From a virus, in the IMG/VR virus record IMGVR_UViG_3300028800_000060, positions 32,001 to 96,000 of that record: DNA of 64,000 nt; one strand, written 5' to 3'. The translations under genes and the position numbers were made by a program. The notes under the pieces were generated by a model. The model was not told the DNA's origin. It made no database searches and saw nothing but the letters and a program-made list of their open reading frames with translations. Positions 2,416 through 58,530 of the stretch are shown in pieces. How positions within the stretch are numbered: the stretch's first letter is position 1; each line of letters begins with the position of its first letter.

Positions 2416-3360
2416 ATGACTTGTTGGAACGAAATAAAGAAATTAACTGGACAAAATACAAATGTGTCCAAGTATGTTTTTTCTAAAGATGATGCGGTAG
2501 CAGAATCGGTACTTTATAAGTACCCCACATATCAAGAGAGAACGGTAATCTGTTGCTCCACCCAGAGTGGTTGTCCCGTAGGATGCCGTTTCTGTGGTTC
2601 AGGAGATTATTTTGTTCGTAATCTAACAACCAAAGAAATTCTTTCACAACCACTGGCTTTGTTGGAACAAACAGGAGTTGATCCTAATAGTATCAATAAA
2701 CTCCAGATTATGTTTATGAGTATGGGAGAACCTATGCTTAATCAAAAGCAATTATTTCCCGCACTACGTAAACTATATGAATTGTACCCCGAGGCAGCTT
2801 TACTCATTTCGACTATTGGTCCTTCATTGGATTATTATGAATTTTATCAAATTAGCCGAGAAATTCCGACAATTGGTTTACAATTCTCAGTTCATGAGAG
2901 TACTGATGTTGCCCGTGATCAATTGATTCCTTTCCGGAATAAAATGAGCTTACAAGAACTTGCTTGTGTTGGTGAAAATTGGTTTTATGAAACTGGCGGA
3001 AGACATCCATTTTTCAATTATTGCGCGAACGTACACAATACGACGGATGCGGATGTTGAGAGATTAGAACGATTATTTGATCCTTCTATATTCCAAGCAA
3101 CTATTTCGGTAATTTGTGAACGTGAAGAGACAGTGGCGGCATCTAATAGCCGTCAAAAGCAATTGGCATTAGATTTTATGCAAAAATTAAATTATTCCGG
3201 ATATTCTACCAGATGTTTTGATCCTGCGGGCCAAGATGACATTGGTGGTGGATGTGGTCAGTTATGGTATGTCCAAGATTGGATGAAAAATAACCCAGGA
3301 CATGTTCGTCCTAGTGTGGGACATGGTTTAGTTAGAATTCATACTCCTAAAAATAGTTGA
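2416..3360 (+). CDS. RlmN/Cfr-family radical SAM RNA methyltransferase-like protein
   Basis: CCSTQSGCPVGCRFC (CxxxCxxC plus resolving Cys), MSMGEP, SVH, DIGGGCGQL (methyl-carrier Cys). Confidence 0.88.
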   Translation: MTCWNEIKKLTGQNTNVSKYVFSKDDAVAESVLYKYPTYQERTVICCSTQSGCPVGCRFCGSGDYFVRNLTTKEILSQPLALLEQTGVDPNSINKLQIMFMSMGEPMLNQKQLFPALRKLYELYPEAALLISTIGPSLDYYEFYQISREIPTIGLQFSVHESTDVARDQLIPFRNKMSLQELACVGENWFYETGGRHPFFNYCANVHNTTDADVERLERLFDPSIFQATISVICEREETVAASNSRQKQLALDFMQKLNYSGYSTRCFDPAGQDDIGGGCGQLWYVQDWMKNNPGHVRPSVGHGLVRIHTPKNS

Positions 3361-3421
3361 AATCAGAATTATTTTGTGTTATTCTGTAAGTATAGAAAAA
3401 TGATAATGAAAAGGAATAATC

Positions 3422-4438
3422 ATGTCGGATCATAAATGTGAGGTAGTTCCAGTAGTGTTGGAAAAGCATCCAAATGCCGATGCTCTTTCCATTGTGAATG
3501 TGTTTGATGGATACCAGGTCTGTGTGCGTACGGCAGATTGGACGGGAGTCGATGTGGGGGTTTATATTCCTCCCGATTCTATAGTTCCTGATACCGAACA
3601 ATTCAAATTCCTTGAGGGACATTTGCGAATTAAAGCTAAGAAACTTCGTGGTATTGAAAGCTATGGTCTATTAGTTCCTGTTCCGTTAATGGATGACCCC
3701 ATTGGATGGAATAAGAAAGAATTTGAAATTGGAGAGGATCTTTCTGAGGAGATGGGAATCAAACACTATGAACCTGAAATGTCCTCATTCATTAAACGGT
3801 CGGTAGGTAATTTTTCTGATCCACCTCCCATCGCCGGTTCCATTTATGATATGGAAGCCTGGAAGAAATACGGACATGAATTTGTGGATGGAGAAGAAGT
3901 TGTAATTACTGAAAAGATCCATGGTACAAATTCAAGATATACATTCCAGAATGGACGAATGTATTGTGGATCTCATAATACATGGAAGAAACAAGATCCT
4001 GATGGTACGACTCAAAATATTTATTGGAACATACTTACAATCCATCCATGGGTAGAAGCGTTTTGTCGTTTGAATCCGAATGTTATTTTGTATGGAGAAA
4101 TTTTTGGTGAAGTGCAGAAAGGTTTTAATTATGGCTCAACTCAAGACAATCCTTACCAGTTTCGTGCTTTTGATGTGTACGCCGGTGGGCGTTTCCTTGA
4201 TTACGATGATGCTCTTGGCAACGCCAGCAGTGATTTTTTGGTTCCCGTCCTCTACCGGGGACCATATTCTTCTGAGGTTGTTGTAAAGCATACATCCGGT
4301 TTAACTACATTAGGACGAGGACATATTAGAGAAGGTGTTGTTATTAAACCCACCAAGGAACGTTATAGTGAAAGATTACGGGGACGTCTTATTCTCAAGA
4401 ATGTATCTATAGAATATTTGGAAGGAAAAAAGAAATGA
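3422..4438 (+). CDS. RNA ligase, DRB0094/Rnl5 family
   Basis: N-terminal HPNADAL...KLRGIESYGL OB-like domain; TEKIHGTN, YGEIFG, FRAFDV, REGVVIK ligase motifs. Confidence 0.9.
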   Translation: MSDHKCEVVPVVLEKHPNADALSIVNVFDGYQVCVRTADWTGVDVGVYIPPDSIVPDTEQFKFLEGHLRIKAKKLRGIESYGLLVPVPLMDDPIGWNKKEFEIGEDLSEEMGIKHYEPEMSSFIKRSVGNFSDPPPIAGSIYDMEAWKKYGHEFVDGEEVVITEKIHGTNSRYTFQNGRMYCGSHNTWKKQDPDGTTQNIYWNILTIHPWVEAFCRLNPNVILYGEIFGEVQKGFNYGSTQDNPYQFRAFDVYAGGRFLDYDDALGNASSDFLVPVLYRGPYSSEVVVKHTSGLTTLGRGHIREGVVIKPTKERYSERLRGRLILKNVSIEYLEGKKK

Positions 4439-4725
4439 TTAAATTTGAAAAAACGCCGCAATTAAACGATCATACATATGAATCTGGGAATATTCCTCCC
4501 GGAAAAACTTTTATGTGCAGGTATAAAAATGATGAAAATGATTGTGATGACTGTCCTAATGCCATTTATATGATGGTAAATCCTAGAATGGATGGGGAGG
4601 GAGTATGTGACATCTTGGTTAACCTAAAAACCGGATTAGGTACTCCATGTATACAAGATGGCAAGTATTTGATGTTAACAGATTTCCGCTTTGTAGACAT
4701 TATGGCAAAGTGTAAAAACGCCTGA
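4435..4725 (+). CDS. Hypothetical protein
   Basis: ATGA overlap with upstream gene. Confidence 0.6.
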   Translation: MIKFEKTPQLNDHTYESGNIPPGKTFMCRYKNDENDCDDCPNAIYMMVNPRMDGEGVCDILVNLKTGLGTPCIQDGKYLMLTDFRFVDIMAKCKNA

Positions 4726-4903
4726 AAAATGAAGAACCAAAAAGAACTTATATGGTTAACTGACGACTTGATTGCTCGTCTTAACCATATAAGAAATCGG
4801 GCAAATAAACCCGATTTCTCTCGAAAAGAGTGGGAGTTATATATTAACCAGTTTTCGGTGTTAGAAATTGAAACTCTGAAAAATTGGTTGGGAATATAAA
4901 TAA

Positions 4904-5257
4904 ATGCCTAAAATAAAAACCAAAGTAAAAAAGCGAATCGAGGAAGTTAAAAATAAATATTTCCAGTGGACTTTCGAAGTCTCAGGAACTTATAATCCTG
5001 ATGGTGACTCTAACTTTTTAGGCAAAGTAAAAGATGAGGCTGGAAGAGTTGTAATGACCATTAAAGAAGATCCAGATTTCAATCAACTCTCACGCCTAAT
5101 TCGGACATCAAAATATCTAACTAAACCTACCGATATGAAAGGCCTGGCCGAATACATTTGGGATCGTAATTTACTTCCTATGGATCCTGAAGATAAAGCG
5201 GAATGGCAAAAGAAAAAGCGTATTCCTATTGACGTTAAGTATATAACCGTCATATAA
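4904..5257 (+). CDS. Hypothetical protein (late-promoter driven)
   Basis: ORF directly after TATAAATA at 4895-4902. Confidence 0.6.
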   Translation: MPKIKTKVKKRIEEVKNKYFQWTFEVSGTYNPDGDSNFLGKVKDEAGRVVMTIKEDPDFNQLSRLIRTSKYLTKPTDMKGLAEYIWDRNLLPMDPEDKAEWQKKKRIPIDVKYITVI

Positions 5258-5265
5258 TAGTAAAT

Positions 5266-5532: not shown

Positions 5533-5577
5533 CAGCCGTGGCTGCGTTATATATTTTCTAGTAAGATTCATTTTTGT

Positions 5578-5820: not shown

Positions 5821-5824
5821 AAAT

Positions 5825-5914
5825 GGAGGGTTGGCAGAGTCCGGCTGATCGCGACTGGTTGCTAACCAGTTAGGCCTCGCAAGGGCCTCATAGGTTCAAA
5901 TCCTATATCCTCCG
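5825..5914 (+). tRNA. tRNA-Ser(GCT)
   Basis: GGAGGGT/ATCCTCC acceptor, ACTGG-TTGCTAA-CCAGT, long variable arm, GTTCAAATC; CCA not encoded. Confidence 0.92.
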
Positions 5915-5922
5915 GAGGTTTT

Positions 5923-5986
5923 TATGTAGTTAGTAAGGTGCTTACGTGTTAAATGGCTGATTCAGTCTTGCCAGGAAAGCTACATA
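5923..5986 (+). ncRNA. Unassigned structured RNA between tRNA-Ser and tRNA-Arg
   Basis: 9-bp closing stem tatgtagtt/agctacata enclosing two hairpins. Confidence 0.4.
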
Positions 5987-5987
5987 C

Positions 5988-6063
5988 GCCCCTATCGTCT
6001 AATAGGATAAGGCATTGGTCTTCTAAACCAACAACCGGGGTTCGAATCCCTGTAGGGGTACCA
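5988..6063 (+). tRNA. tRNA-Arg(TCT)
   Basis: GCCCCTA/TAGGGGT-A-CCA, TTGGT-CTTCTAA-ACCAA, GGTTCGAATCC. Confidence 0.95.
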
Positions 6064-6086
6064 AATTATTTGAAAGGTGAATTATT

Positions 6087-6302
6087 ATGACAATTGACGA
6101 TGCTCTTATTAGACTCAACCAATTAAAAGAAGATTGGGGAGGTAATGAACCTTTGTTTCTTGTTGATAGAAGAGATAATCGATTATTCAACGAAAGACCT
6201 TTGGGTCATAATGACATGTGTCCTCCAACTGGTAAAATTTATATAGGTTATGGATACAATCAAAATGCTTCAATTGACATCTTTGATGATTTTTGGGATT
6301 AG
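6087..6302 (+). CDS. Hypothetical protein
   Basis: AAGGTGA RBS upstream. Confidence 0.6.
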   Translation: MTIDDALIRLNQLKEDWGGNEPLFLVDRRDNRLFNERPLGHNDMCPPTGKIYIGYGYNQNASIDIFDDFWD

Positions 6303-6464
6303 GTGAATCTTATGAACGCAAGAACAACGCCCTTCTAAGGCGGGTGTTGGGATATGAAAATTTTGGTTGTTATTTTCCTTGCTCACTATGTGATTTATTA
6401 GATGCTAATAAATTTGCATGTGTCATGCAGGTAATGTTATATGATTTTAATAGGGATAACTAGA

Positions 6465-6494
6465 TTGACATTTATGTTTCTTGTGTGATATACT
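6465..6494 (+). promoter_or_regulatory. Sigma70-type promoter for tRNA-Ile
   Basis: TTGACA-18 bp-TGnTATACT. Confidence 0.75.
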
Positions 6495-6512
6495 TGATTT
6501 GTTGAAAGAAAT

Positions 6513-6587
6513 GGCCCCATAATTCAGTGGTAGAAAGCTCTCCTTATAAGGGGTATGTCGGTGGTTCGAATCCATCTGGGGCTACCA
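6513..6587 (+). tRNA. tRNA-Ile(TAT)
   Basis: GGCCCCA/TGGGGCT-A-CCA, anticodon loop CTTATAA, GGTTCGAATCC. Confidence 0.88.
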
Positions 6588-6593
6588 TATCAA

Positions 6594-6629
6594 AATCGAA
6601 CCTCTACAATATTTAGTAGAGGTTCGATT
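6594..6629 (+). promoter_or_regulatory. 14-bp inverted repeat hairpin sequestering the RBS of the HNH gene
   Basis: aatcgaacctctac/gtagaggttcgatt; AGAGG lies in the 3' arm and the ATG is at 6632. Confidence 0.75.
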
Positions 6630-6631
6630 AT

Positions 6632-7128
6632 ATGAAATTTTGTCCTAAATGTAAAAAAGAACGTTCTAAACACGGAATATTTTGTAGTAGATCTTGTGCT
6701 AATTCTCGGAAATTTTCCGAGGTATCTTGTCAAAAGAAATCGGAATCTAATAAGAACTGGTATCTCCCGAATATAAAAAATCCTTATTAGAAAAAAGTAT
6801 TTTCTCAAAAAGAAGTATTGATAAATCCCAAAAGATTAAGCAACAAATAAAAGATGGACGTCTTTGGGAAGAGTTGTGTTATGATCTAAAGAAAGAAAAA
6901 GTAAGATTAGAACAAAATGGATTCTGTAATAAATGTGGTTTAAATACATGGTTAAATGAACCAATTGTATTGGAAATTCATCACATTGACCATGATAGTA
7001 TAAATGATACGCGAGAAAATTTAGAAGGTTTATGTCCTAATTGTCATTCGGTGACAGATAATTGGAGAGGTCGAGGAAAGAAATTTAAACGGAATAAACT
7101 TAACAAAAAGAAGATTTCTTCTTTTTGA
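6632..7128 (+). pseudogene. Frameshifted HNH homing endonuclease
   Basis: 5' frame MKFCPKC...FCSRSCANS stops at TAG 6788-6790; the -1 frame is open from 6754 and encodes CNKC...LEIHHIDHDSINDTRENLEGLCPNCH. Confidence 0.8.
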
Positions 7129-7153
7129 CATTTACACTTTGTTGTGATATATT
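7125..7153 (+). promoter_or_regulatory. Sigma70-type promoter upstream of tRNA-Lys
   Basis: TTGACA-17 bp-TGnTATATT. Confidence 0.75.
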
Positions 7154-7241
7154 AGATGAGTATGACAACACACAATTTTGTGGTTGTTTACCATTAGTTC
7201 ATTATGTAGGTGAATGTTCGCATGCGATATTTTAAAGTTTT

Positions 7242-7316
7242 GACCTGGTAGCTCAATGGTAGAGCTTTCGGCTTTTAACCGAAAGGTTGTGGGTTCGAGT
7301 CCCACCCGGGTCACCA
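7242..7316 (+). tRNA. tRNA-Lys(TTT)
   Basis: GACCTGG/CCGGGTC-A-CCA, TTCGG-CTTTTAA-CCGAA. Confidence 0.95.
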
Positions 7317-7325
7317 AAAGTTTGT

Positions 7326-7825: not shown

Positions 7826-8077
7826 ATGAAATTAAAAATTGGTGATCTAATTAAAGCATACCATTCTGGTATTCATGAAGTAACAGTAGAACCCGGATAT
7901 GCTAAGACTGTTGGGTATAAACAAGTTTATACTAATGAAGGAAAACCTTTTAGGGGTAAAAATTATGTTTGTCATGTGGATTATTGCCGAAAGATTGACC
8001 CCGAATGGATTGAAGGGGAAGTTGCAATTCATAAACTAGTTATAAAGCAATTATATGATTTAATTAACCATGTTTGA
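7826..8077 (+). CDS. Hypothetical protein
   Basis: GGAG RBS before ATG 7826; LKIGDLI SH3-like start. Confidence 0.6.
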   Translation: MKLKIGDLIKAYHSGIHEVTVEPGYAKTVGYKQVYTNEGKPFRGKNYVCHVDYCRKIDPEWIEGEVAIHKLVIKQLYDLINHV

Positions 8078-8822
8078 TCTCAGTATTTTTAATCTCGGTA
8101 ACCATATTGGTACACCTATTCTAATAGGTCAATTAGGTTCTAAAGCATACGGAACAGATACTCCCGATTCTGATGATGATTTCGTGAGTGTTGTTGTTTC
8201 ACCTCTTTCATATTATATCGGATTAAATTCTTGGGAAAATGACGGTTCGTTAAAGATTGAACGTAAAGAAACACATAATGCTGAATTAACGGCATTTGAC
8301 ATTAAGAAGTTTTTGAAGTTATGTTTGAATTTTAATCCTAATGTGATTCCTCTTTTATATTTACGTCAAAATGATTATGAATTTATGACGTCCGGAGGAA
8401 TTCGTTTATTGGCCGATCGGTCAGCATTTACCAGTAAAAGAGCTTACAATACAATGATTGGTTATGCCAAATCACAACGTAAAGCTGTTGTGAATGGTGA
8501 TACCGGTAAATTGGGAATGAAAAGAAAAGAATTAGTAGCAAAGTATAGCTATGATGTTAAATTTGCGAGCCATACTATTCGTATTTTAAAAATGGCCATT
8601 GAATTTTTCCGAGAGGGACAATTGAATGTTTATCGGGAGAATGATCGTGATTTGTTGGTTGGTATAAGACAAGGAAAATGGTCTTTGAAACAATGGTTAA
8701 ATGAAGTAGATTATTTACTTGAACAGGCGCAAAAAGCCGAAGCAGAAAGTAATTTACCAGAAACTCCAGATTACGAAAGGGTAAATGATCTTTGTATGGA
8801 TCTTATCAAGACTTATGCGTGA
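8070..8822 (+). CDS. Pol-beta-superfamily nucleotidyltransferase (YcgL/RlaP/NrdC.11-like)
   Basis: GSKAYGTDTPDSDDD, NPN, YDVKFASHTIR. Confidence 0.88.
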   Translation: MFDLSIFNLGNHIGTPILIGQLGSKAYGTDTPDSDDDFVSVVVSPLSYYIGLNSWENDGSLKIERKETHNAELTAFDIKKFLKLCLNFNPNVIPLLYLRQNDYEFMTSGGIRLLADRSAFTSKRAYNTMIGYAKSQRKAVVNGDTGKLGMKRKELVAKYSYDVKFASHTIRILKMAIEFFREGQLNVYRENDRDLLVGIRQGKWSLKQWLNEVDYLLEQAQKAEAESNLPETPDYERVNDLCMDLIKTYA

Positions 8823-9273
8823 AATTACCGGTGATATTTGGGACTTTCACGAACAAGGTTTTCCTATCGTCATAACCACAAATTGTAATATAAATAGCCG
8901 ACATAATGCGGTAATGGGAAAAGGTATAGCTTCGGAAGCCAAAGAACATTTTCCTGGTTTACCAAAGATGTTGGGAGAACATATCAAATGTTTTTATGAT
9001 GCTGTAAAATATTTTCCCGAATTTAATTTATTTGTATTACCCACCAAATATAATTGGTGGGAAAAATCTGATTTGGAACTCATAGAACAAGGTGTAATAC
9101 AATTACGAAAAATAGTTCATTATAAACAGACGGTTATGCCTAAAGTTGGGTTTGATAAAGTTTATATGGTCAGACCTGGTTGTTCTAATGGCCACTTAAA
9201 ATGGGAAGATGTTAAACCTATTTTAGTAAATAATTTGGATGTTTCATTTTTTGTAGTAGAAAAAAGAACTTGA
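8815..9273 (+). CDS. Macro-domain (ADP-ribose processing) protein
   Basis: ITGDIWD, ITTN, AVMGKGIA, PTKYNW, PGCSNG. Confidence 0.85.
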   Translation: MREITGDIWDFHEQGFPIVITTNCNINSRHNAVMGKGIASEAKEHFPGLPKMLGEHIKCFYDAVKYFPEFNLFVLPTKYNWWEKSDLELIEQGVIQLRKIVHYKQTVMPKVGFDKVYMVRPGCSNGHLKWEDVKPILVNNLDVSFFVVEKRT

Positions 9274-9903: not shown

Positions 9904-9906
9904 TTT

Positions 9907-9978
9907 GATATATCGTCTAGTGGCAGGACATTGCCCGTGAATAGGGTGAAAATGGTGGGTTCGAATCCCCGTATATCT
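9907..9978 (+). tRNA. Atypical or degenerate tRNA-like gene (anticodon unclear)
   Basis: GATATAT/GTATATC acceptor, GTCTAGTGGCAGGAC D arm, GGGTTCGAATCCC T arm; non-canonical anticodon arm ttgccc-gtgaata-gggtga; no CCA. Confidence 0.55.
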
Positions 9979-10011
9979 TTTAGCCTTTAAAAGCTATTAT
10001 TGTGGAACAAA

Positions 10012-10099: not shown

Positions 10100-10178
10100 G
10101 GGCTATGGAGATGCACGGGGTGTCTACTTCATTTGCAATGAAGAAAGCAGATCGGTTCAATTCCGATATGGTCCACCA
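10100..10178 (+). tRNA. tRNA-Ala(TGC)
   Basis: GGGCTAT/ATGGTCC-A-CCA with G3:U70, CTTCA-TTTGCAA-TGAAG; atypical D arm. Confidence 0.88.
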
Positions 10179-10180
10179 AT

Positions 10181-10276
10181 ATTTGTCTGTGGCAAAGTGA
10201 AGTCAGTTTAGTTTCCACCTAACTGTAGGGTTATAACCAGCGACTAAACGTAAGTCGCAACGTACAGTAGACAAAT
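10181..10276 (+). ncRNA. Unassigned multibranch RNA between tRNA-Ala and tRNA-Cys
   Basis: atttgtct/agacaaat closing stem with internal hairpins (cagtt/aactg, ggtt/aacc, gcgact/agtcgc). Confidence 0.5.
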
Positions 10277-10292
10277 CGGATGAGTTGATTAA

Positions 10293-10369
10293 GCATTGGA
10301 TGCCGAAGAGGTCGAGGCGATGGTCTGCAAAACCATTCTTAGAGAGTTCGAGTCTCTCCCTTTGCTCCA
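10293..10369 (+). tRNA. tRNA-Cys(GCA)
   Basis: ATGGT-CTGCAAA-ACCAT, GAGAG-TTCGAGT-CTCTC, U73-CCA; two U-U mismatches in the acceptor. Confidence 0.85.
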
Positions 10370-10394
10370 TAAATAGTGTATTAGAGAAATAAAA

Positions 10395-11084
10395 ATGTCA
10401 CAAAAAACGAGAGAGCAATTCAAAGACGATAATAAGCAACTTCGCTGCCAATTACGGCAGTCGCAACGTGAAGTTCACCAATTACAAGCGGATATTCTTG
10501 ATCTTGAGGAACTCCGTGATGAAAGTTTAGACGAACAAGAAGATTTGGTTGAGGATTTAGAAAAAGAATTGACCGTATTAAGACAAGATGTAGAAAGTTT
10601 GGAACGTGATTTAAATACAGAAACTGAAATTGTAGAACAATTGCGAACTGAGTTGAAAACTTCAGAAGATTCGAATACTTCTCTCCGTGATGAAATTTCT
10701 GAATTGGAAGAAGAGGCCGAAAATTTAAGATACCAACTTGAAGATTTGGAATCTGATAGTAATGAATGTGAAGAATTGCGCGAAGAACTTGCAGATGCTA
10801 ATCAGGACATTGATAATCTTCAAGAACGGATTAAAGAACTGAATTCCGAACGTACGGATGCTATGGATTCTGTCGATTATCTTCAAGAGGAAGTCGATTC
10901 TCTTCGTGATGAACTTGTAAATCTTCGAGATGATGAATGTATTCATGAAGACGAAAATACCGCTCTTCAAGATGAAATTGACTCTCTTCGAGACGAAAAT
11001 AACTCTCTTGAACAGGAAAATAGGGAACTTGGAGAGGAAAATGTTAGACTTTTAGGACAACTAGAAGATTACGAATCTCTTTAG
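10395..11084 (+). CDS. Highly acidic coiled-coil protein
   Basis: Continuous heptad pattern, E/D-rich, recurring SLRDE. Confidence 0.75.
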   Translation: MSQKTREQFKDDNKQLRCQLRQSQREVHQLQADILDLEELRDESLDEQEDLVEDLEKELTVLRQDVESLERDLNTETEIVEQLRTELKTSEDSNTSLRDEISELEEEAENLRYQLEDLESDSNECEELREELADANQDIDNLQERIKELNSERTDAMDSVDYLQEEVDSLRDELVNLRDDECIHEDENTALQDEIDSLRDENNSLEQENRELGEENVRLLGQLEDYESL

Positions 11085-11090
11085 TTTTAT

Positions 11091-11201
11091 GTAGTCCGAA
11101 AGGACTACGGGGGTAGTTTATATCCTCTCGTAGAACGGTAAAATCACTCCGTTCCATCTTTAGATGGATAGATGGTCGAGTCGTGACGATCCGGGAGGGC
11201 C
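11091..11201 (+). ncRNA. Unassigned structured RNA upstream of tRNA-Leu(CAA)
   Basis: gtagtcc-GAAA-ggactac GNRA hairpin, gaacgg/ccgttc and overlapping alternative stems; GC-rich against background. Confidence 0.4.
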
Positions 11202-11210
11202 AAATATTAT

Positions 11211-11300
11211 GGCCGTGTAGCAGAACTGGTACTTGCGCGAGACTCAAAATCTCGGTCGAACTAAGATTCATTGTGGGTTCGAATCCCACCATGGCCACCA
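11211..11300 (+). tRNA. tRNA-Leu(CAA)
   Basis: GGCCGTG/CATGGCC-A-CCA, CGAGA-CTCAAAA-TCTCG, long variable arm. Confidence 0.93.
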
Positions 11301-11335
11301 AATCTCGAAATTAAAACTTAATAAGAGTGTAAAGC

Positions 11336-11548
11336 ATGCCTTACTACGATTATGAATGTACGAAATGCCATAAGCAATTTGAAGTTTTTCAGCATATGGT
11401 AGATGAACCTTTTACCGAATATCGGCATTTAGATAGATATCTTTGTACTTGTAATGGACCTGTTGTTCGGAATATATCCGTACCTTCGTTAAAATTTATA
11501 GGTAAGGGGTTTTTCGTTAATGATTATCCCAAGGACAGCAAATGCTGA
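11336..11548 (+). CDS. FmdB-family zinc-ribbon protein
   Basis: MPYYDYECTKC...FIGKGFFVNDY. Confidence 0.88.
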   Translation: MPYYDYECTKCHKQFEVFQHMVDEPFTEYRHLDRYLCTCNGPVVRNISVPSLKFIGKGFFVNDYPKDSKC

Positions 11549-11672
11549 ATTGGCAGTTAGATTATTATCGTTAAGTTATGGATATGAAAAAGAAGTAAAA
11601 TTGACAATGAAACAAGCTGCCGATTTATTAATTTGGATTCAAGAAGTAGACAAGTATTTAAAGAAACAAGTT

Positions 11673-11753
11673 TAGAGAGTAACCGCAACCTATTCGGTAT
11701 TAGGGATTATTAGTGGTAATAGGATAACACTAATATATAACTCCTGCTCTCTA
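11673..11753 (+). ncRNA. Unassigned three-way-junction RNA with potential kissing loops
   Basis: tagagagta/tgctctcta closing stem; loops cctatt and aatagg are complementary. Confidence 0.5.
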
Positions 11754-11765
11754 TTAAATTTAAAT

Positions 11766-11841
11766 GCCACAGTAACTCAGATGGTAGAGTGCCACACTTG
11801 TAATGTGGATGTCGGGGGTTCGAAGCCCTCCTGTGGCTCCA
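11766..11841 (+). tRNA. tRNA-Thr(TGT)
   Basis: GCCACAG/CTGTGGC-T-CCA, CCACA-CTTGTAA-TGTGG. Confidence 0.95.
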
Positions 11842-15543: not shown

Positions 15544-15618
15544 TCCTCAATAGCTCAATGGTAGAGCTTTCGACTGTTAACCGAAGGGTTGTAGGTTCGA
15601 ATCCTACTTGAGGAGCCA
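15544..15618 (+). tRNA. tRNA-Asn(GTT)
   Basis: TCCTCAA/TTGAGGA-G-CCA, loop CTGTTAA, GGTTCGAATCC. Confidence 0.95.
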
Positions 15619-15622
15619 AGTT

Positions 15623-15767
15623 TTGTGAAAGATAGACTAACAAGGAACATAGGGAGCCCTTAAAGCCTAATTATAAGTATGGATGCATACAGAACATAAA
15701 TAAATGGCAGCTAGGAGCGGGGTAAAGCGGACCGCAATCCGTAATCTCAGGTGAAATCCTTTCACAA
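15623..15767 (+). ncRNA. Unassigned ~145-nt structured RNA after tRNA-Asn
   Basis: ttgtgaaag/ctttcacaa closing stem; T-loop-like agg-TGAAAT-cct next to the 3' strand; internal hairpins. Confidence 0.5.
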
Positions 15768-15878
15768 TGAAAGATATACATGAATTTTTTGAAAAAGATA
15801 ATAAATTTGATTCTGTGTATAATTTCGTTTTTGACTAAATATAACAGAGTTAAACTTGTAGCAACAATCGAGGGAAAT

Positions 15879-16190
15879 ATGTCAACACAATTAGTAGCAG
15901 GACAAGTAGCAACAGTTAAGTTGAGCGGTTTGGATGTAAAGGGAGATGTAGCTCCTGTTTATAATCTAGCTGGCTCTGTGGCCACGGCCGATGCCGCGGT
16001 ATTAGCAGTTACAGTTAACGCAGACGGCACTTTGTCTGTAACATCTCTAGGACCAATAGGAGCAGCAACAGTGACATTTACCGCCACTGATGCTGCTGTA
16101 AATGGGAATGTTTTATCAACAACTCTTGAATTTACTGTAGTAGCAGGACCTGCTGTGCAATTAGTAGCAACCGTTGTTTCTGTAGCGTAG
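15879..16190 (+). CDS. Ig-like domain protein (possible virion decoration); in-frame upstream start at 15780
   Basis: GAGGG RBS; V/A/T-rich beta pattern, GAATVTFTA. Confidence 0.65.
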   Translation: MSTQLVAGQVATVKLSGLDVKGDVAPVYNLAGSVATADAAVLAVTVNADGTLSVTSLGPIGAATVTFTATDAAVNGNVLSTTLEFTVVAGPAVQLVATVVSVA

Positions 16191-16221
16191 TAGTAAAATG
16201 ATGTTGATAGTTTACCGACTA

Positions 16222-16250
16222 TTGACATCCGGTGTAGTTAATGATACAAT
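16222..16250 (+). promoter_or_regulatory. Sigma70-type promoter (leaderless transcript)
   Basis: TTGACA-17 bp-TGnTACAAT; GTG start 6 nt later. Confidence 0.8.
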
Positions 16251-16256
16251 GAAATT

Positions 16257-16670
16257 GTGAAGATAATCAGACTTGGCTTTACTGGCACCAGAAAAGGAAT
16301 GACTGAAAGGCAAAAGAAAGAATTGTCTCTTTATTGCCGTTTATGGCAAAATTCTGGTAAAACAATTGAATGGCATCATGGATGTTGTATTGGTGCCGAT
16401 GTAGAATTTGATAATATCGTTCGTAATTACGAACGATATGGCCATTTACATCCTTCTAACAATACAAAAACATTTGTTGATTGTTTTGAAAATGGTGATA
16501 TTCTTTATCCAGAAAAACCACCATTAGTAAGAGATAGGGATATTGTGAATGCTGTTGAAATTTTAATTGCTGCCCCGTATCAAGAAAAAGAAATAATTCA
16601 CAGTGGAACTTGGACAACTGTTCGTTATGCGAAACAAAAAGGTATTGAGATTATTATTTTAAAAAGGTAA
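16257..16670 (+). CDS. SLOG-superfamily (DprA/YpsA-like) protein
   Basis: GFTGTR, HHGCCIGAD, SGTWTTVRYA. Confidence 0.8.
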   Translation: MKIIRLGFTGTRKGMTERQKKELSLYCRLWQNSGKTIEWHHGCCIGADVEFDNIVRNYERYGHLHPSNNTKTFVDCFENGDILYPEKPPLVRDRDIVNAVEILIAAPYQEKEIIHSGTWTTVRYAKQKGIEIIILKR

Positions 16671-16675
16671 AATGT

Positions 16676-16751
16676 AGCCACGTAGCCCAATTGGTATAGT
16701 CCTTGCCTTAGAAGCAAGTTAGTGTGGGTTCGAATCCCACCGTGGCTACCA
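16676..16751 (+). tRNA. tRNA with TAG anticodon (Leu) lacking the long variable arm
   Basis: AGCCACG/CGTGGCT-A-CCA, CTTGC-CTTAGAA-GCAAG, 5-nt variable loop. Confidence 0.85.
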
Positions 16752-17230: not shown

Positions 17231-17237
17231 TAGTTTC

Positions 17238-44099: not shown

Positions 44100-44570
44100 A
44101 TGACACTTCAAAAACAAATAAAAGACATTAATAATATCCGTTCACAAATGTGGCCGAATAGTGCCATATTTAATATTAATGAATTGGATCATCTTATTGG
44201 CACTTTGATAGAGGAAACGGGTGAGTACAGACAAGCATGTCGTTCCTTTTTGGGAAGACCATTTTCTCCGGAAAAGGTGGCATCAAAAGAACACATGGTT
44301 GAAGAGTTGGGAGATATTTTAGTTCCAGTTATTGCTTTGTCCAACCAATCGGGAATTTCTTTTGAAGAGGCTTTGGAAGTTGCCTATCAAAAGCTTCGTA
44401 AACGTTTGGAAAATAAAAGAGAAAAAGAACGATTGGACCACATAGCAAAAACAGATGAAACGTCTGTTTTAAAATTTAATCCTATGGATCATCAACCTTT
44501 CAAGTATGATGTGGAGGATGAAATTAATAAACCACATCCGGAAGATTCTATACCCAAATATAATTGGTAA
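44100..44570 (+). CDS. MazG-like NTP pyrophosphohydrolase
   Basis: EETGE...EELGD. Confidence 0.8.
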   Translation: MTLQKQIKDINNIRSQMWPNSAIFNINELDHLIGTLIEETGEYRQACRSFLGRPFSPEKVASKEHMVEELGDILVPVIALSNQSGISFEEALEVAYQKLRKRLENKREKERLDHIAKTDETSVLKFNPMDHQPFKYDVEDEINKPHPEDSIPKYNW

Positions 44571-44576
44571 GTTATA

Positions 44577-45359
44577 ATGGGAACTTTTATAAGTGATTGG
44601 GAATATCCTCAACCTGAGGTTTGTGTTTGTGGTAATCTTACAAGAGAACATTGGAGAAAACGGAATTGTCTTATGACTGAACGAATAAAATATCCAAAGA
44701 CGATGCACTTCCCATGGTCACCGAATCTCCAGAATGATGATCGTCTCATTCAAGATAACCAAATGCCTGGTAAGGTAGTTGTAATGACTGAGAAAATGGA
44801 TGGAGAAAATACAACAATGTATTATGATGGTATCCATGCTCGGTCAAGAGATTCATTGTCACACCCCTCCAGAACATTTGTCCAAGCTTTGCATGGTCAA
44901 ATTGCGCATTTGATCCCGGTAGGATTTCGAATTTGTGGAGAAAATTTATTTGCAAAACATTCTATACATTATCGCAATTTGAAATCTTATTTCCATGTAT
45001 TCTCTATTTGGGATAAAGATAACAACTGCTTTTCTTGGGATGATACCAAAATCTTTTGTGACTTGTTAGGATTGAAACCAGTACCTGAAATTTGGTGGGG
45101 TGTTTATGATGAGCAGGCAATTCACAATGCTTACCATTATTACAGTCCCGGTCACGAAGTTGAAGGATATGTTGTTCGTGTAACTAACATTTTCTCGGCC
45201 GATAAATTTGAAAATTGTGTGGCTAAATATGTACGCAAAGGGCATGTCCAAACGTCAGAACATTGGATGAATGAGGCTATGGTTAAGAATGAATTAGAGC
45301 AAGAGTTTACCTTTCCAAATCACCCCATATTACCCTTGAAGAATGCCGAGTTTGAATAG
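44577..45359 (+). CDS. Rnl2-type RNA ligase family protein
   Basis: KYPKTMHFPWS, TEKMDGEN, CGENL, EGYVVR, AKYVR. Confidence 0.88.
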   Translation: MGTFISDWEYPQPEVCVCGNLTREHWRKRNCLMTERIKYPKTMHFPWSPNLQNDDRLIQDNQMPGKVVVMTEKMDGENTTMYYDGIHARSRDSLSHPSRTFVQALHGQIAHLIPVGFRICGENLFAKHSIHYRNLKSYFHVFSIWDKDNNCFSWDDTKIFCDLLGLKPVPEIWWGVYDEQAIHNAYHYYSPGHEVEGYVVRVTNIFSADKFENCVAKYVRKGHVQTSEHWMNEAMVKNELEQEFTFPNHPILPLKNAEFE

Positions 45360-46024
45360 TGTACGAACATTTAAATATTCAAATTCCTGAACTTGCTAAA
45401 CAGGTTTCCATAGACGGACAATCTGGTCCAAGATTGTATCAAACACCTTATGGAAAAATATATCCATCTATAACAAGTTGCTTGGCTCCTCTTAAAGAAG
45501 AAATAATTGCAAACTGGCGCGCCCGCGTTGGTAATGAGGTTGCCGATAAAGAATCAAAATGGGGTAGGGACCGGGGGACCGCACTTCATTTGGCTCTTGA
45601 AGACGTCTTAAAAAATAAACCACTAAAGGGACATCCACTCTTAATTAGGATGCTCGTTGATGAATTAATGCCTTATCTAAGAAAGATAGGAAGGATTCAT
45701 TGTCAAGAAACTCCTTTATATTCAGATTATTTCGAAATTGGAGGTAGATGTGATTGCATCGGAGAGTATGCTGGAAAATTATCGGTAATTGACTTTAAGG
45801 GATCTAATAGAACTAAAAAACGTGAATGGATTATAGATTACTTTATGCAGTGTGCGTTTTACGCATACGCATACTGGGAACGCACTGGGGAACGCATAGA
45901 ACAGTCTGTTATTTTGGTCGCTAACGAACAAGGCCAGGCTTCAGAATTCATTGAGAAGCCATGGGACTGGTGGAAAGAACTGAAAGAAGTACGCGAATCA
46001 TATAGAACGAGGTACGATATATGA
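45359..46024 (+). CDS. PD-(D/E)XK (Cas4-like) exonuclease
   Basis: YPSIT, RGTALH, GRCDCI, IDFKGS, YFMQ. Confidence 0.85.
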   Translation: MYEHLNIQIPELAKQVSIDGQSGPRLYQTPYGKIYPSITSCLAPLKEEIIANWRARVGNEVADKESKWGRDRGTALHLALEDVLKNKPLKGHPLLIRMLVDELMPYLRKIGRIHCQETPLYSDYFEIGGRCDCIGEYAGKLSVIDFKGSNRTKKREWIIDYFMQCAFYAYAYWERTGERIEQSVILVANEQGQASEFIEKPWDWWKELKEVRESYRTRYDI

Positions 46025-47005: not shown

Positions 47006-47995
47006 ATGAGCAAAAAAAGAACTAATCAAACTGTAACTATCACCCTTGGTTTACCTGCCTCAGGAAAAACTACTTGGGCAAAAAAAGAAGTTGAATTAGC
47101 AAAACTTTGCAATGAAATTCCCATTGTGCGGGTGAACAATGATGATATACGGGATGAATTAAATGGCGGTCCAATGGATCATTCCAATTGGACTCCCGAA
47201 TTTGAGAAAAAGGTTCGTAAAGTTCGGTTTGAAAGAATTACGGAAGCCCTGAAATCAGGTTGTGATGTTATTGTAGATAACACACATCTGTCCTACAAAA
47301 CTCTAAATAGCCTGAAAACCTGGTTGAAACAGAATTTTCCTAATGTCATTATTGAAGAGAAAGACTTCCGTGATGTTCCTCTCCAAGAATGTTTGGATCG
47401 AGATAAGGCAAGAATTGCTCGGGGTGAGCGTGGAGTAGGTTCTGAGGTAATTATGAAAATGGCAAGTGAAGCGGGACTCATCAAAGAAATTCCTCCACAT
47501 ACAATCGATTGGACTTTGCCGTGGACTATCATGTGTGATTTAGATGGTACTTTAGCTCGCATTGGTAAACGTAGTCCATATGATTGTTCTCAATGCGATC
47601 TATTAGATACTCCCAATCTACATGTCCTACAACTATTGAGGACTTATCAAACTGGACATATTGTTGAGAATATGGATGGATTTGTAACTTCGCATCCAAA
47701 TATTGAAAAAATTCATTTCTTCACTGGCCGAACCGACAATTACAAAGGTCCCACGCTTCGGTTTCTACTAACTAAATGTGGTTTTGATGTTGCTAATGAT
47801 CCATATTTTGAATTAGTTATGCGCCAAACAGGTGATAGTAGACCCGATGAGATCATTAAACGTGAAATGTTTGACTCCCACATCAAAAATAAGTATAATG
47901 TATTTGTAGTTGTAGATGATAGGCCGCGCGTTGTTCGTATGTGGCACAGTTTAGGATTACCAGTTTTTAATGTGGGTGATGGAAGAGAATTTTAA
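47006..47995 (+). CDS. pseT: Polynucleotide 5'-kinase/3'-phosphatase
   Basis: GLPASGKTT P-loop; DLDGT HAD motif; TGR; DDR. Confidence 0.93.
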   Translation: MSKKRTNQTVTITLGLPASGKTTWAKKEVELAKLCNEIPIVRVNNDDIRDELNGGPMDHSNWTPEFEKKVRKVRFERITEALKSGCDVIVDNTHLSYKTLNSLKTWLKQNFPNVIIEEKDFRDVPLQECLDRDKARIARGERGVGSEVIMKMASEAGLIKEIPPHTIDWTLPWTIMCDLDGTLARIGKRSPYDCSQCDLLDTPNLHVLQLLRTYQTGHIVENMDGFVTSHPNIEKIHFFTGRTDNYKGPTLRFLLTKCGFDVANDPYFELVMRQTGDSRPDEIIKREMFDSHIKNKYNVFVVVDDRPRVVRMWHSLGLPVFNVGDGREF

Positions 47996-49036: not shown

Positions 49037-49063
49037 AAAGGGGAAGCTTAAAGCTTCCCTTCT
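49037..49063. terminator. Hairpin between convergent genes
   Basis: aaggggaagc/gcttccctt inverted repeat. Confidence 0.6.
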
Positions 49064-49758
49064 TTATCCAAATAAGCTAATTTAGCAACGATCCATTCTT
49101 TTACAATACCAGAACGAACGATATCTTCCTCTTCAAATTCGATAAAACTAAAACTTTCGCAATTTTCAATTATATCCAAAAATTGTGGAACACCAGTCTT
49201 ATCATATTTGCTGCGGTATAAATCAGTTTGATCTATATCACCACAAAAGACAACACGGCATCTATTTCCGATACGTGTAATAACTGTATCGAGTTCTTCG
49301 AAATTCATATTTTGGATTTCATCTACGATAATAACAGCATCATTTAAAGTTGTTCCTCTTAAATGTGATGTGGTTATAAATTCAATCATCATTTTCTGTT
49401 TCAATATATCGTAGGCATCACCTCTACCAAATAATTCAGAACAAATCTTCTGGTATGGTGCCTCATAAACGGCCATTTTTTCTCCGGCGGTACCGGGAAG
49501 AAATCCCATATCACGTGAGGGAACAATACTTCGAATAATTATCACTCGCTGATACTTACCATTTAGGACTTCTTGAAGACCTAACCATAATGAAAGGAAT
49601 GTTTTTCCTGTCCCAGCAACACCATGTAAAACTAAATTGTAATCAGAACGGAATGATTCGATCATTGCATTTTGAGTTGGTGTTTTGGGTTCTATTTTCC
49701 TCATGGGAAAACTTTTATCTGGACCAGGTTTCGTCTTTATCTTCTTTTTTGTTGCCAT
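49048..49758 (-). CDS. phoH: PhoH-family ATPase
   Basis: GVAGTGKT, GFLPG, LRGTTL, DEIQN, GDIDQTD, DIVRS. Confidence 0.95.
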   Translation of the reverse strand: MATKKKIKTKPGPDKSFPMRKIEPKTPTQNAMIESFRSDYNLVLHGVAGTGKTFLSLWLGLQEVLNGKYQRVIIIRSIVPSRDMGFLPGTAGEKMAVYEAPYQKICSELFGRGDAYDILKQKMMIEFITTSHLRGTTLNDAVIIVDEIQNMNFEELDTVITRIGNRCRVVFCGDIDQTDLYRSKYDKTGVPQFLDIIENCESFSFIEFEEEDIVRSGIVKEWIVAKLAYLDKEGKL

Positions 49759-56909: not shown

Positions 56910-56986
56910 CGGGATGTAGCGCAATCTGGTAGCGCATCTGATTTGGGATCAGAGGGTCGCTGGTTCGAATCCAGCCATCCCGACCA
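56910..56986 (+). tRNA. tRNA-Pro(TGG)
   Basis: CGGGATG/CATCCCG-A-CCA, TCTGA-TTTGGGA-TCAGA. Confidence 0.95.
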
Positions 56987-57091: not shown

Positions 57092-57283
57092 ATGGCACGC
57101 AAACAAACGGTCATTAAATGTGGATGTAGAAATTGTATTTGGGGAATGCATCATTCTTCTTGGGGAAAAACCAAAATGCAAGCGACAATCCGTAGTCTTC
57201 GGCGTAGTATCAAAATTGCATTAAGAGTGGGAGATTTTGATAAGGCACAAGATGCAATCATTAGTGCCGGATATTTGGATTAA
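57092..57283 (+). CDS. Small basic hypothetical protein
   Basis: CGCRNC. Confidence 0.5.
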   Translation: MARKQTVIKCGCRNCIWGMHHSSWGKTKMQATIRSLRRSIKIALRVGDFDKAQDAIISAGYLD

Positions 57284-57284
57284 C

Positions 57285-57827
57285 ATGAGCAATATTTTTT
57301 TGACAGCCGATACCCACTTTGGGCATTGCAACATTCTGAAGTACTGTAATAGGCCTTTTAAAGATCACGAGGAAATGAATGAAGGAATTATTTCTCGATT
57401 TCTTGAAGTCTTGAGAAATGGAGATACCTTATATCATCTGGGTGATGTTTGTCACTCACATTTTCCTATAAAATCTTGGCTAGATAGAATGCCGGGAATT
57501 CAAGTTCACTTAATTTACGGTAACCATGATAAACATAAATTACTTTTACACCCTAAGATTATTTGGACGGGTGAACGCAAAGGTGTCCAAATTGGCAAAG
57601 ATCGGTTTGAATTATTTCATTATCCTATGAGGAGTTGGAACCATAAAGGACATGGTGCATATCATTGCTTTGGTCATTGTCACGGAAGACTTCCAATATA
57701 TGACCGAAGTATGGATGTTGGAGTAGATACACACAATTATTATCCTTATCATGTTGATGAAATTGTAAAGACTTTGAAAGATAACCCATTTTTTCATGAT
57801 AGTGATCATCACAATAAAGGAATATGA
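57285..57827 (+). CDS. Calcineurin-like phosphoesterase
   Basis: ADTHFGH, LGD, GNHD, HYP, GHCH, DVGVD. Confidence 0.9.
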   Translation: MSNIFLTADTHFGHCNILKYCNRPFKDHEEMNEGIISRFLEVLRNGDTLYHLGDVCHSHFPIKSWLDRMPGIQVHLIYGNHDKHKLLLHPKIIWTGERKGVQIGKDRFELFHYPMRSWNHKGHGAYHCFGHCHGRLPIYDRSMDVGVDTHNYYPYHVDEIVKTLKDNPFFHDSDHHNKGI

Positions 57828-58066
57828 CAGTAAAAAAATTAGAAACGAAGAAATTGGACCCCGTAGACTACAAACACAAAGATATTCCGTTTATGTTTTT
57901 TACGGCAGGCTCTCTAGCATGCGAATTATTCCTTAATGCCGAGGAAATTATTTATAAGCTTACCAATAATGGTATTAAGAAATATTGTATTGATCCAGAA
58001 AATACTTTTTTTGATGTGATGGAAGTGGAAATCGATAAAATCTCGTGGCGTGTTAAAAGTGCATAG
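57824..58066 (+). CDS. Hypothetical protein
   Basis: AAGGA RBS, ATGA overlap. Confidence 0.5.
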   Translation: MTVKKLETKKLDPVDYKHKDIPFMFFTAGSLACELFLNAEEIIYKLTNNGIKKYCIDPENTFFDVMEVEIDKISWRVKSA

Positions 58067-58077
58067 TTGTTCGTAAA

Positions 58078-58174
58078 GGTGGATGTGGCATAGCTTAAGT
58101 ATAAAGCACTACGGCATCCGGTGAAATACGGGGATGAACCATGTTATACCAAATGAAAGGTTGGTTGCCCACCA
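58078..58174 (+). ncRNA. tRNA-like multibranch RNA ending in ACCA
   Basis: ggtgg/ccacc-a ends; D-arm-like TAGCTTAAGTATAAAGC; ccg-GTGAAATA-cgg hairpin. Confidence 0.4.
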
Positions 58175-58182
58175 AGAATTTT

Positions 58183-58530
58183 AGCGGTATTATCGTATAG
58201 ATCTGTGTAGACACTTTTTCGGACCCGGGTTCGACTCCCGGCAGGTCCACCAAGATACACTAAATGGGTAACAGACTGGCCTCTTTTAATACATTCTCTA
58301 GTGGGCTGGCGAAGTGCAATGGGACCTAGAGCATTTGGTGTATCTCGGTGGGCCTGTAATGGTTTCGACGAGACTGTTGCGAGCATGGTGCGATACGTGG
58401 ACTACCCACGTTAAACAGAAGAAAACAACAAAAGACACAGAAATGTATCTAGCAATGGCTGCGTAAGCAGCATTGAGGGGTTTGGTAGTTTTCCTTTTTA
58501 CCCAAAAACTACCCCCTTCGGGGTTCCCTC
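58183..58530 (+). ncRNA. ssrA: Circularly permuted (two-piece) tmRNA
   Basis: 3' end GGACCCGGGTTCGACTCCCGGCAGGTCCACCA (58221-58252) precedes 5' end GGGCCTGTAATGGTTTCGAC (58350); G3:U70; tag ...KDTEMYLAMAA* ends at 58466. Confidence 0.92.

Follow-up and report, generated by a model that had tools for sequence, protein, structure and literature searches.

RNA-repair and translation-support genes of an uncultured T4-like phage probably form three separate modules and not a single system

In its early/middle-gene region, a 176-kb T4-like phage probably holds genes for RNA repair and translation support, of known kind, as three separate modules, with no single system uniting them. The region analysed here, referred to as the window, is a stretch of 64,000 nt (bases 32001-96000 of the 175,698-bp virus record IMGVR_UViG_3300028800_000060, hereafter G000, the GC content of which is 37.6%), with nearly all of its genes on the + strand. 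The original prediction had joined tRNAs, a two-piece transfer-messenger RNA (tmRNA), RNA ligases and other RNA-directed enzymes of this stretch into one self-contained translation-rescue kit. Its functional theme of healing and sealing of RNA, tRNA supply and trans-translation is reasonable, whereas the notion of a single integrated kit fails.

The window encodes a T4-type replication set, consisting of a family-B DNA polymerase (PolB), a UvsX-like recombinase and a DnaB-like helicase, as well as homologues of gp33, gp59 and gp32. The PolB is at most 41% identical to those of cultured phages, the nearest being cyanomyoviruses, and a megablast search of 50,697 phage genomes returned no near-identical record. 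On account of these two observations, G000 is placed by its sequence as an uncultured, deep-branching T4-like phage. Relatives were obtained through look-ups of PolB, gp32 and homologues, whilst IMG/VR scans based on Rnl1 and the phosphoesterase gave few or none. The relatives comprise two complete genomes, G004 (179,687 bp) and G007 (176,794 bp), and the fragments G001 (IMGVR_UViG_3300042904_000107, 46.7% GC), G002, G005 and L041. All are syntenic, with a median protein identity of ~60% (genome-wide medians of 62% and 60%).

Module A (about 0.1-17.3 kb), rich in promoters, consists of a tRNA island headed by genes for NAMPT, an RlmN/Cfr-type methylase and an Rnl5-type ligase:

116..1609, + strand: NAMPT (nicotinamide phosphoribosyltransferase), NAD+ salvage (PF04095, PF18127); in G004 and G001, absent in G007
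2416..3360, + strand: short RlmN/Cfr-type radical S-adenosylmethionine (radical-SAM) RNA methyltransferase (PDB RlmN 6fz6, E 6e-19; Cfr 9p0p, E 2e-16)
3422..4438, + strand: Rnl5-type RNA ligase (PF21189, PF09414; NgrRnl 6vt4/5cot, E 2e-9)
5824..7316, + strand: tRNA block 1, Ser(GCU), Arg(UCU), Ile(UAU), Lys(UUU) (ARAGORN, Rfam)
8070..8822, + strand: RlaP nucleotidyltransferase (PF10127, 64.2 bits, cut-off 23; phrog_388)
8785..9273, + strand: probable Macro-domain protein overlapping the end of RlaP, probable start 8815 (PDB macro 5m3i, E 5e-4; phrog_335, 'phosphatase')
9906..9979, + strand: conserved tRNA-like RNA (Rfam tRNA 23.6 bits, below the cut-off; orthologues in G007 and G004)
10100..11841, + strand: tRNA block 2, Ala(UGC), Cys(GCA), Leu(CAA), Thr(UGU) (ARAGORN, Rfam); syntenic in G004, G007 and G001
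15544..17313, + strand: tRNA block 3, Asn(GUU), Leu(UAG), Trp(CCA) (ARAGORN, Rfam)

Module B (40.8-49.8 kb) is separated from module A by ~20 kb of replication genes, amongst them those for PolB, the UvsX-like recombinase and the DnaB-like helicase, and contains the Rnl1-Pnkp cluster:

40796..41509, + strand: calcineurin-like metallophosphoesterase at the head of the module (PF00149); in G004, G002 and L041, absent in G007
41941..42669, + strand: orf242, a conserved protein next to Rnl1; present in all five relatives covering the region
42672..43898, + strand: Rnl1-type RNA ligase (PF09511, 50.1 bits, cut-off 28.3; T4 Rnl1 2c5u, E 7e-8)
44100..44570, + strand: MazG-like NTP pyrophosphohydrolase preceding the short ligase (PF03819)
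44577..45359, + strand: short RNA ligase with a nucleotidyltransferase (NTase) domain only, PF09414 ('Rnl2 family') clade (PF09414, 103.8 bits); absent from G004
45359..46024, + strand: PD-(D/E)XK nuclease (PF12705, phrog_298); present in all relatives
47006..47995, + strand: Pnkp, 5'-kinase and HAD 3'-phosphatase of T4 type (PF13671, 63 bits; PF25109, 122 bits); in all relatives
49048..49758, - strand: PhoH-like ATPase flanking the module (phrog_170); in G004, G007 and L041

Module C (56.9-58.5 kb) lies directly upstream of gp33-gp59-gp32; its parts and the first gene of that series are:

56910..56986, + strand: tRNA-Pro(UGG), the conserved upstream partner of the tmRNA (ARAGORN, Rfam)
57237..57827, + strand: aq_1665-like metallophosphoesterase (phrog_547; PDB 1xm7, E 7.5e-8); absent from G004 and G007
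58140..58527, + strand: circularly permuted (two-piece) tmRNA gene (RF04321, 97.4 bits, cut-off 47; beta_tmRNA 82.2 bits)
58581..58838, + strand: gp33-like late-transcription coactivator (phrog_254)

The modules differ in their transcriptional context. A scan with the sigma70 consensus detected 13 promoter-like sequences on the + strand (TTGACA, 17 nt, TATAAT; 11 or more matches out of 12), compared to 1.8 +/- 1.4 in shuffled sequences. Nine of the 13 fell within 2355-19807, all of them intergenic and situated before the RlmN-like gene and the tRNA blocks, with 11/12 promoters at 5578, 6465 and 7125 near tRNA block 1; this nine-promoter stretch marks an early-gene region. Near-consensus promoters of this type were found neither inside the Rnl1-Pnkp cluster nor directly before the tmRNA, and no T4-type late promoter motif was seen immediately upstream of any listed part. 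Because promoters are concentrated in module A and lacking from those two locations, co-expression as one unit is not indicated. The idea of one system is at odds with this picture of three modules in different transcription contexts, with replication genes between them.

The distribution of the parts amongst the relatives was similarly uneven. Wherever the region was covered, we found the tRNA island, the Rnl5-type ligase, Rnl1, Pnkp, the PD-(D/E)XK nuclease, orf242, PhoH and the tmRNA, and the core proteins were 61-72% identical among relatives, at or above the genome-wide medians. RlaP and Macro occurred together in G000, G004 and G001, with neither in G007; MazG and the short ligase likewise accompanied each other in G000, G007, G002 and L041, with neither in G004. 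The RlmN-like gene (among four relatives) and the 57237 phosphoesterase were found in G000 only, and G007 had neither NAMPT nor the 40796 phosphoesterase. Co-occurrence across related phages therefore holds for the tRNAs, the Rnl5-type ligase, Rnl1, Pnkp and the tmRNA, but the RlmN-like gene, RlaP with Macro, MazG with the short ligase, both phosphoesterases and NAMPT are patchy. Outside the lineage, the nearest homologues (~30-50% identity) lay in a different set of phages for each enzyme.

Nor is the set self-contained, as had been proposed. SmpB (PF01668) was not detected in G000, G004 or G001, whilst controls were, and no CCA-adding enzyme was found in G000 or its relatives. Judged from gene content and distribution, the set is a vertically inherited core accompanied by small exchangeable cassettes and dependent on host factors; the tRNAs, the Rnl5-type ligase, Rnl1, Pnkp and the tmRNA would make up the inherited core, and the other parts the cassettes.

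The enzymes of the Rnl1-Pnkp cluster were largely as predicted. The Rnl1 assignment at 42672 was confirmed by its Pfam and structure matches, and the protein is 61-72% identical to its counterparts in G004, G007, G002 and L041. The kinase predicted at 47006 matched T4 Pnk (1ltq) over its full length (E 1.2e-26; residues 10-326 against 4-299). Both predicted phosphoesterases were recovered, one at the head of module B (40796-41509) and one in module C (57237-57827). The analysis added four genes that the original prediction did not list, namely those for NAMPT, the probable Macro-domain protein, MazG and PhoH. The protein at 44577 had been described as Rnl2-like, in agreement with its PF09414 match and KxDG motif; however, the protein lacks the C-terminal domain that T4 Rnl2 requires to recognise nicks. 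Motif I of this ligase (KMDGEN) was invariant in 24 homologues. Its 260-aa sequence yielded a confident model for the NTase core only (about residues 35-240), and members of the family are mostly about 210 aa long. The best fold match of the model was T4 Rnl2 (2hvq, E 1.5e-5), with Rnl3 and Rnl5 structures as near-ties and a template modelling score (TM) of only about 0.4. Given this model, the 44577 protein would be better named a short PF09414 ligase than Rnl2. Relatives of the short ligase include HNH-fused forms, and the nearest homologues are found in the jumbo phages XacN1, RsoM2USA, CcrBL9 and Atu_ph07. The window thus does encode three ligases, as claimed, but they are not of three different families: two share the Pfam family PF09414, albeit with differing architectures.

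The conserved neighbour of Rnl1, orf242, gave no Pfam or PHROG match, and its AlphaFold model (predicted local distance difference test score 71) had no fold match in the PDB; searches placed it only in virus-specific, unnamed Atlas clusters. A profile search starting from orf242 reached, by a remote link, ~400-aa fused relatives of phrog_2319, itself of unknown function. Genes for GIY-YIG/SegE-like and NUMOD3 homing endonucleases are dotted over the Rnl1-Pnkp cluster of the relatives (L039/G007, 5959-20376; window, 40063-40506), and such endonucleases may drive the cassette-like gain and loss in this cluster.

In module A, the Rnl5-like ligase predicted at 3422 proved to have the expected architecture, with an OB domain (PF21189) at residues 14-87 and a PF09414 nucleotidyltransferase at residues 158-326, and it aligned with Naegleria NgrRnl across residues 19-252. 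It is 65-72% identical to its counterparts in G004, G007 and G001. The RlaP-like nucleotidyltransferase at 8070 was likewise verified by its PF10127 score; a sequence search with it matched no solved structure. Its absence from G007 was confirmed by a six-frame Pfam search, in which the G000 RlaP was detected at E 8e-18. The overlapping 8785-9273 gene is probably that of a divergent Macro domain, since its Atlas structure has a TM of 0.92 to Macro clusters, with no Pfam match at E <= 0.1. Two Bastille-like phages showed no RlaP-Macro adjacency, their RlaP gene lying by those for ribonucleotide reductase. RlaP adds one or two nucleoside monophosphates to the 3' ends of damaged RNA, which it prefers, and is required to restore aminoacylation of over-damaged tRNA; NrdC.11 of T4 is an RlaP (bioRxiv 10.64898/2025.12.29.696909).

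The most distinctive enzyme of module A is the RlmN-like methylase, the assignment of which stands on its RlmN and Cfr matches, the CX3CX2C cluster motif and the conservation of both mechanistic cysteines (equivalent to C118 and C355 of the Escherichia coli enzyme). In alignments to 3rf9 and 6fz6, 'CCSTQSGCPVGCRFC' and the C-terminal 'GCGQL' occupy matching positions. The N-terminal accessory RNA-binding domain is missing, residue 36 of the query aligning with residue 108 of RlmN. A perfect 12/12 sigma70-like promoter (2355-2383) precedes the gene. The short RlmN-like proteins belong to an extensive family with strong conservation, its top 120 cluster representatives sharing 63-74% identity at a length of about 310 aa, and many of its members are encoded on phage-sized contigs. 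In the literature searched, no paper dealt with RlmN-like genes of phages.

Gene neighbourhoods in other phages support the grouping of the RlmN-like gene with RNA repair. Amongst 10 independent contexts, an RNA ligase was encoded within ~6 kb in five and NAMPT within ~6 kb in four, so that one or the other lay near the RlmN-like gene in eight; a ninth context has a cRec domain. The ligase gene is directly adjacent in the window and in the locus L037. In a phage-like region of a Mycolicibacterium assembly (L061; GCA_030417535.1, 4205-7895), a ligase, two small open reading frames (ORFs), the RlmN-like gene and Pnkp follow one another in a tight, partly overlapping arrangement, which is the most plainly operon-like of the links between the methylase and RNA repair. 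The arrangement is reminiscent of bacterial Pnkp-Hen1, a 'repair and then methylate' system in which Hen1, a Rossmann-fold 2'-O-methyltransferase, acts at the repair junction. In L061 too a methyltransferase gene lies beside an RNA ligase and Pnkp, and in the window the RlmN-like gene is followed by the Rnl5-type ligase; the enzyme here differs in being a radical-SAM adenine C-methylase of RlmN/Cfr type. A 'repair then methylate' role for the RlmN-like enzyme is only inferred. We would go further only as a distinctly doubtful suggestion, namely that the short RlmN-like enzyme is a recurrent phage component of RNA repair and NAD salvage, which would methylate A37 of tRNA or an rRNA adenine and so shield repaired or phage-made RNA, with the 9906-9979 RNA as a possible further non-decoding partner.

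ARAGORN identified the predicted 12 tRNAs within the window, and a 13th (Glu) upstream of it; 11 of the 12 passed the Rfam gathering score. The remaining one, tRNA-Ala (10100-10178), scored below it, yet its place and length are kept in the relatives. The ARAGORN call 'tRNA-Tyr(ATA)' was rejected in favour of tRNA-Ile(UAU), as the Rfam covariance model aligns the loop CUUAUAA; tRNA-Ile(UAU) was also found at the corresponding place in G007. Several tRNAs had been described as having non-standard bodies, which holds for tRNA-Ala, for tRNA-Cys, with two U.U mismatches, and for tRNA-Leu(UAG) (16676-16751), which at 76 nt has a class-I body without the long variable arm. tRNA-Leu(UAG) and the neighbouring tRNA-Leu(CAA) have identical T arms, and the G004 tRNA syntenic with the former is a normal 86-nt Leu(AAG). 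Twelve of the 13 tRNAs encode their own 3' CCA. In G007, ARAGORN reported a tRNA with an 8-nt anticodon loop and the four-base anticodon UUCA (78916-78993), which could be frameshift-suppressor-like or a degenerate tRNA-Glu.

The number of tRNAs per genome ranged from 13 to at least 30, with 13-18 in the genomes of 37% GC and at least 30 in a syntenic island of G001 (positions 13175-44681), including decoders of G/C-ending codons. The tRNA content of this lineage turns over quickly. In G000, the tRNAs mostly decode favoured A-ending codons (GAA, AAA, ACA, GCA, AUA, AGA): GAA accounts for 84% of Glu and AAA for 73% of Lys codons, ACA and GCA are the top Thr and Ala codons, and AUA, read by tRNA-Ile(UAU), makes up 25% of Ile codons. 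The codons read by tRNA-Leu(UAG) are rare (CUA 9% and CUG 5% of Leu).

The further RNA elements of the original prediction fared less well. Eight candidate RNA segments were folded against shuffled sequences and compared with 74 tRNAs of four related genomes. Of three proposed tRNA-like RNAs, only that at 9906-9979 was upheld, having orthologues just upstream of tRNA-Ala in G007 (79642-79713) and G004 (about 137591-137641); those at 11124-11202 and 15623-15767 folded no better than shuffles and showed no resemblance to tRNA. The D arm (UCGUCUAGnGG..AGGAC) and T arm (GGUUCGAAUCC) of the 9906-9979 RNA resemble tRNA-Glu, and the anticodon arm differs in each genome, with the loops GUGAAUA and CUUGAAA and one shortened loop; the acceptor stem is weak and CCA is lacking. 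About seven other structured RNAs had been proposed. Clearly better folding than shuffles was seen for two segments, 7326-7419 (z -3.8) and 10181-10276 (z -3.4), whereas two others had z of about -2, the rest were not significant and none was conserved, blastn-short finding no match to the structured-RNA segments in the relatives. We rejected the possibility that the segments are decayed tRNAs for seven of the eight, as their similarity to the 74 tRNAs did not exceed that of shuffles; the exception was 9906-9979. With a single tRNA-like RNA conserved, the proposed decoy role has no supporting evidence.

The two-piece tmRNA, on the other hand, was firmly identified (RF04321), and was also found in G004, G007 and G005. 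The G3.U70 alanine identity pair is kept in all four genomes, whilst acceptor pairs 4-6 and the T stem change in a compensatory manner: the acceptor stem of G000 is GGGCCUG/CAGGUCC, followed by ACCA, and those of the relatives are GGGAGUG/CACUUCC, GGGUCUG/CAGAUCC and GGGGAUG/CAUCUCC. The 3' end in G005 is ACCC, as opposed to ACCA in G000. The tag frames (...TTKDTEMYLAMAA, ...NDESNFSYLQMAA, ANTTKDEFNYSLPLAA and ...NDETFVLPMAA) all end in (L/M)AA, with differing synonymous Ala codons, the terminus in G000 being ...YLAMAA. The conserved identity pair, the compensatory stem changes and the in-frame tags in four genomes argue for a functional tmRNA, that is, a working trans-translation RNA that would use the SmpB of the host. 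In G004, G007 and G005 the tmRNA is preceded by a tRNA at a distance of 0.35-1.2 kb; the upstream tRNA is Pro(UGG) in G000, G004 and G007 and untyped in G005. Apart from T-arm-sized matches, blastn found no relatives of the tmRNA in 50,697 phage records. The best tmRNA covariance class was betaproteobacterial for G000, G007 and G005 and alphaproteobacterial for G004, mostly below class cut-offs; given this inconsistency and the low scores, inference of the host from the tmRNA class was abandoned.

Two further observations concern genes between modules B and C. The RNase H/5'-3' exonuclease is split into two ORFs (52957-53541 and 53629-54105), each matching phrog_107, where L039 and L041 have a single gene of 302-313 aa. 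The adjoining 52413-52922 encodes a DUF1643 protein (PF07799, 116 bits) that is present in G007 and G002 and missing from G004.

The closest precedent for the healing-and-sealing genes is phage T4, which carries Pnkp, Rnl1, Rnl2 and tRNAs, and in which Pnkp and Rnl1 reverse the cleavage made by PrrC. The original prediction had contrasted the window with a T4 that uses only Rnl1 plus Pnk, which is overstated, as T4 also has Rnl2, RlaP (NrdC.11) and tRNAs. G000 resembles T4 in its full-length T4-type Pnkp, Rnl1, RlaP, a second ligase with an Rnl2-like NTase fold, a tRNA cluster and a T4-like backbone. It differs in that Rnl1 and Pnkp are ~3 kb apart in one conserved cluster, in that the second ligase is without the Rnl2 C-terminal domain, and in the addition of an Rnl5-type ligase, a Macro partner for RlaP, an RlmN-like methylase and a tmRNA; none of these four is known to belong to the tRNA-repair pathway of T4.

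The concept of a layered answer to attacks on translation, made up of tRNAs and repair enzymes, has been put forward for jumbo phages by Iyer et al. 2021 (PMC7824862, section 3.4.9), building on Burroughs and Aravind 2016. The set described there includes Rnl1, Rnl2-family or RtcB ligases, a kinase/HAD phosphatase, calcineurin-like phosphatases, RlaP, Macro, PhoH and NAD+ salvage, and the several ligases per genome are read as non-redundant (PMC7824862). G000 shares both the concept and the families, and its short ligase fits the 'Rnl2 family' of Iyer et al.; however, its 176-kb genome is below jumbo size, RtcB, PTH2 and Thg1 were not noted in it and a search aimed at a CCA-adding enzyme, the only one of the four for which such a search was made, found none, and it has a tmRNA and an RlmN-like methylase, neither of which features in that account. 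Phage tmRNAs also have precedents: about 2.3% of phage genomes contain such a gene, 53 of the 133 unique tmRNAs are two-piece, and a two-piece ssrA lies upstream of gp33 in the OM43 phage Melnitz and related pelagimyophage-like contigs (PMC9004378). The G000 gene is likewise a complete permuted tmRNA in a T4-like myophage, directly upstream of gp33. It differs from Melnitz and other phage tmRNAs in having no blastn-level similarity to them and a tRNA upstream, and Rfam detected no glutamine riboswitch in the window. Phage Lacusarx combines 24 tRNAs with a tmRNA. Given the T4, jumbo-phage and phage-tmRNA precedents, the G000 set is of a known kind, and its novelty as a whole is therefore low.

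If the three modules act in the manner of their homologues, the two PF09414 ligases would seal breaks other than those sealed by Rnl1, probably duplex nicks, and RlaP would restore one or two lost nucleotides. The phage tRNAs, most of which decode A/U-ending codons, would meet the codon demand of an AT-rich phage and stand in for depleted host tRNAs, and the tmRNA, together with host SmpB, would release stalled ribosomes. Several points weigh against this reading. Every mechanistic step in it is drawn by homology, and the sample of relatives is small, consisting of two complete genomes and four fragments. The tRNAs have canonical anticodon loops with no recognisable nuclease-escape changes, and codon compensation and nuclease evasion are not separable for them from these sequences. 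G001, with its higher GC content yet 30 tRNAs that include G/C-ending decoders, is a misfit to simple AT-codon compensation. The recurrent linkage of RlmN-like, ligase and NAD-salvage genes, finally, hints at more functional coupling than a loose collection would have.

One alternative, that of the original prediction, treats all parts from 2416 to 58530 as an integrated, self-contained counter-defence with replacement, modification, repair, decoy and rescue as its layers, on which selection by anticodon nucleases and by abortive infection through ribosome stalling would act as on a whole. All enzyme classes are indeed present in one genome, the core parts are kept in the complete relatives, members of the RlmN-like family recur beside genes for RNA ligases, Pnkp and NAD salvage in other phages, and the distribution of RlaP mirrors that of RNA ligases in jumbo phages (PMC7824862). 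Such a unit would nonetheless have to span three modules of unequal promoter content with ~20 kb of replication genes between, to do so with neither SmpB nor a CCA-adding enzyme of its own and with only one conserved tRNA-like RNA in place of decoys, and to accommodate at least six parts that are independently present or absent among ~60%-identical relatives and whose nearest homologues lie in different phage groups. We consider it quite improbable. Unlikely, though less so, is in our estimation a purely housekeeping set without counter-defence, in which the tRNAs and tmRNA sustain AT-rich translation after host shut-off, whilst the phosphoesterases, Pnkp and the ligases work in the nucleic-acid metabolism of the phage or, in the case of Rnl1, in tail-fibre attachment. 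The Rnl1 of T4, gp63, does have this second role in tail-fibre attachment, which also appears in database annotations, and modules B and C are embedded among replication genes; but Pnkp and Rnl1 are the textbook tRNA-repair pair, and RlaP prefers damaged RNA. The tRNAs point both ways. As they mostly read the most-used A-ending codons of a 37.6% GC phage, AUA being served by tRNA-Ile(UAU), and have canonical anticodon loops, codon supply is favoured; as tRNA-Leu(UAG) serves rare codons and the relative with 46.7% GC has more tRNAs, not fewer, simple codon compensation fits poorly. The hypothesis of nuclease-evading phage tRNAs has, moreover, been published, with a case for nuclease-resistant ones (PMC10264068).

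Three modules of familiar RNA-repair and translation-support genes therefore remain our preferred reading, and within them the RlmN-like gene and the RlaP-Macro pairing are leads of moderate strength. The lineage shows that a T4-like phage of sub-jumbo size can hold almost the whole set of RNA-repair and translation-support genes reported for jumbo phages. The split between core and cassettes provides a natural presence/absence panel for asking which part counters which host tRNase. The RlaP-Macro pairing, and the short RlmN/Cfr-type methylase encoded beside RNA ligases, Pnkp and NAD salvage, are worth experiments; if our reading of the latter is true, it would represent a radical-SAM counterpart of the 'repair then immunise' logic of bacterial Pnkp-Hen1, directed against renewed attack on RNA.

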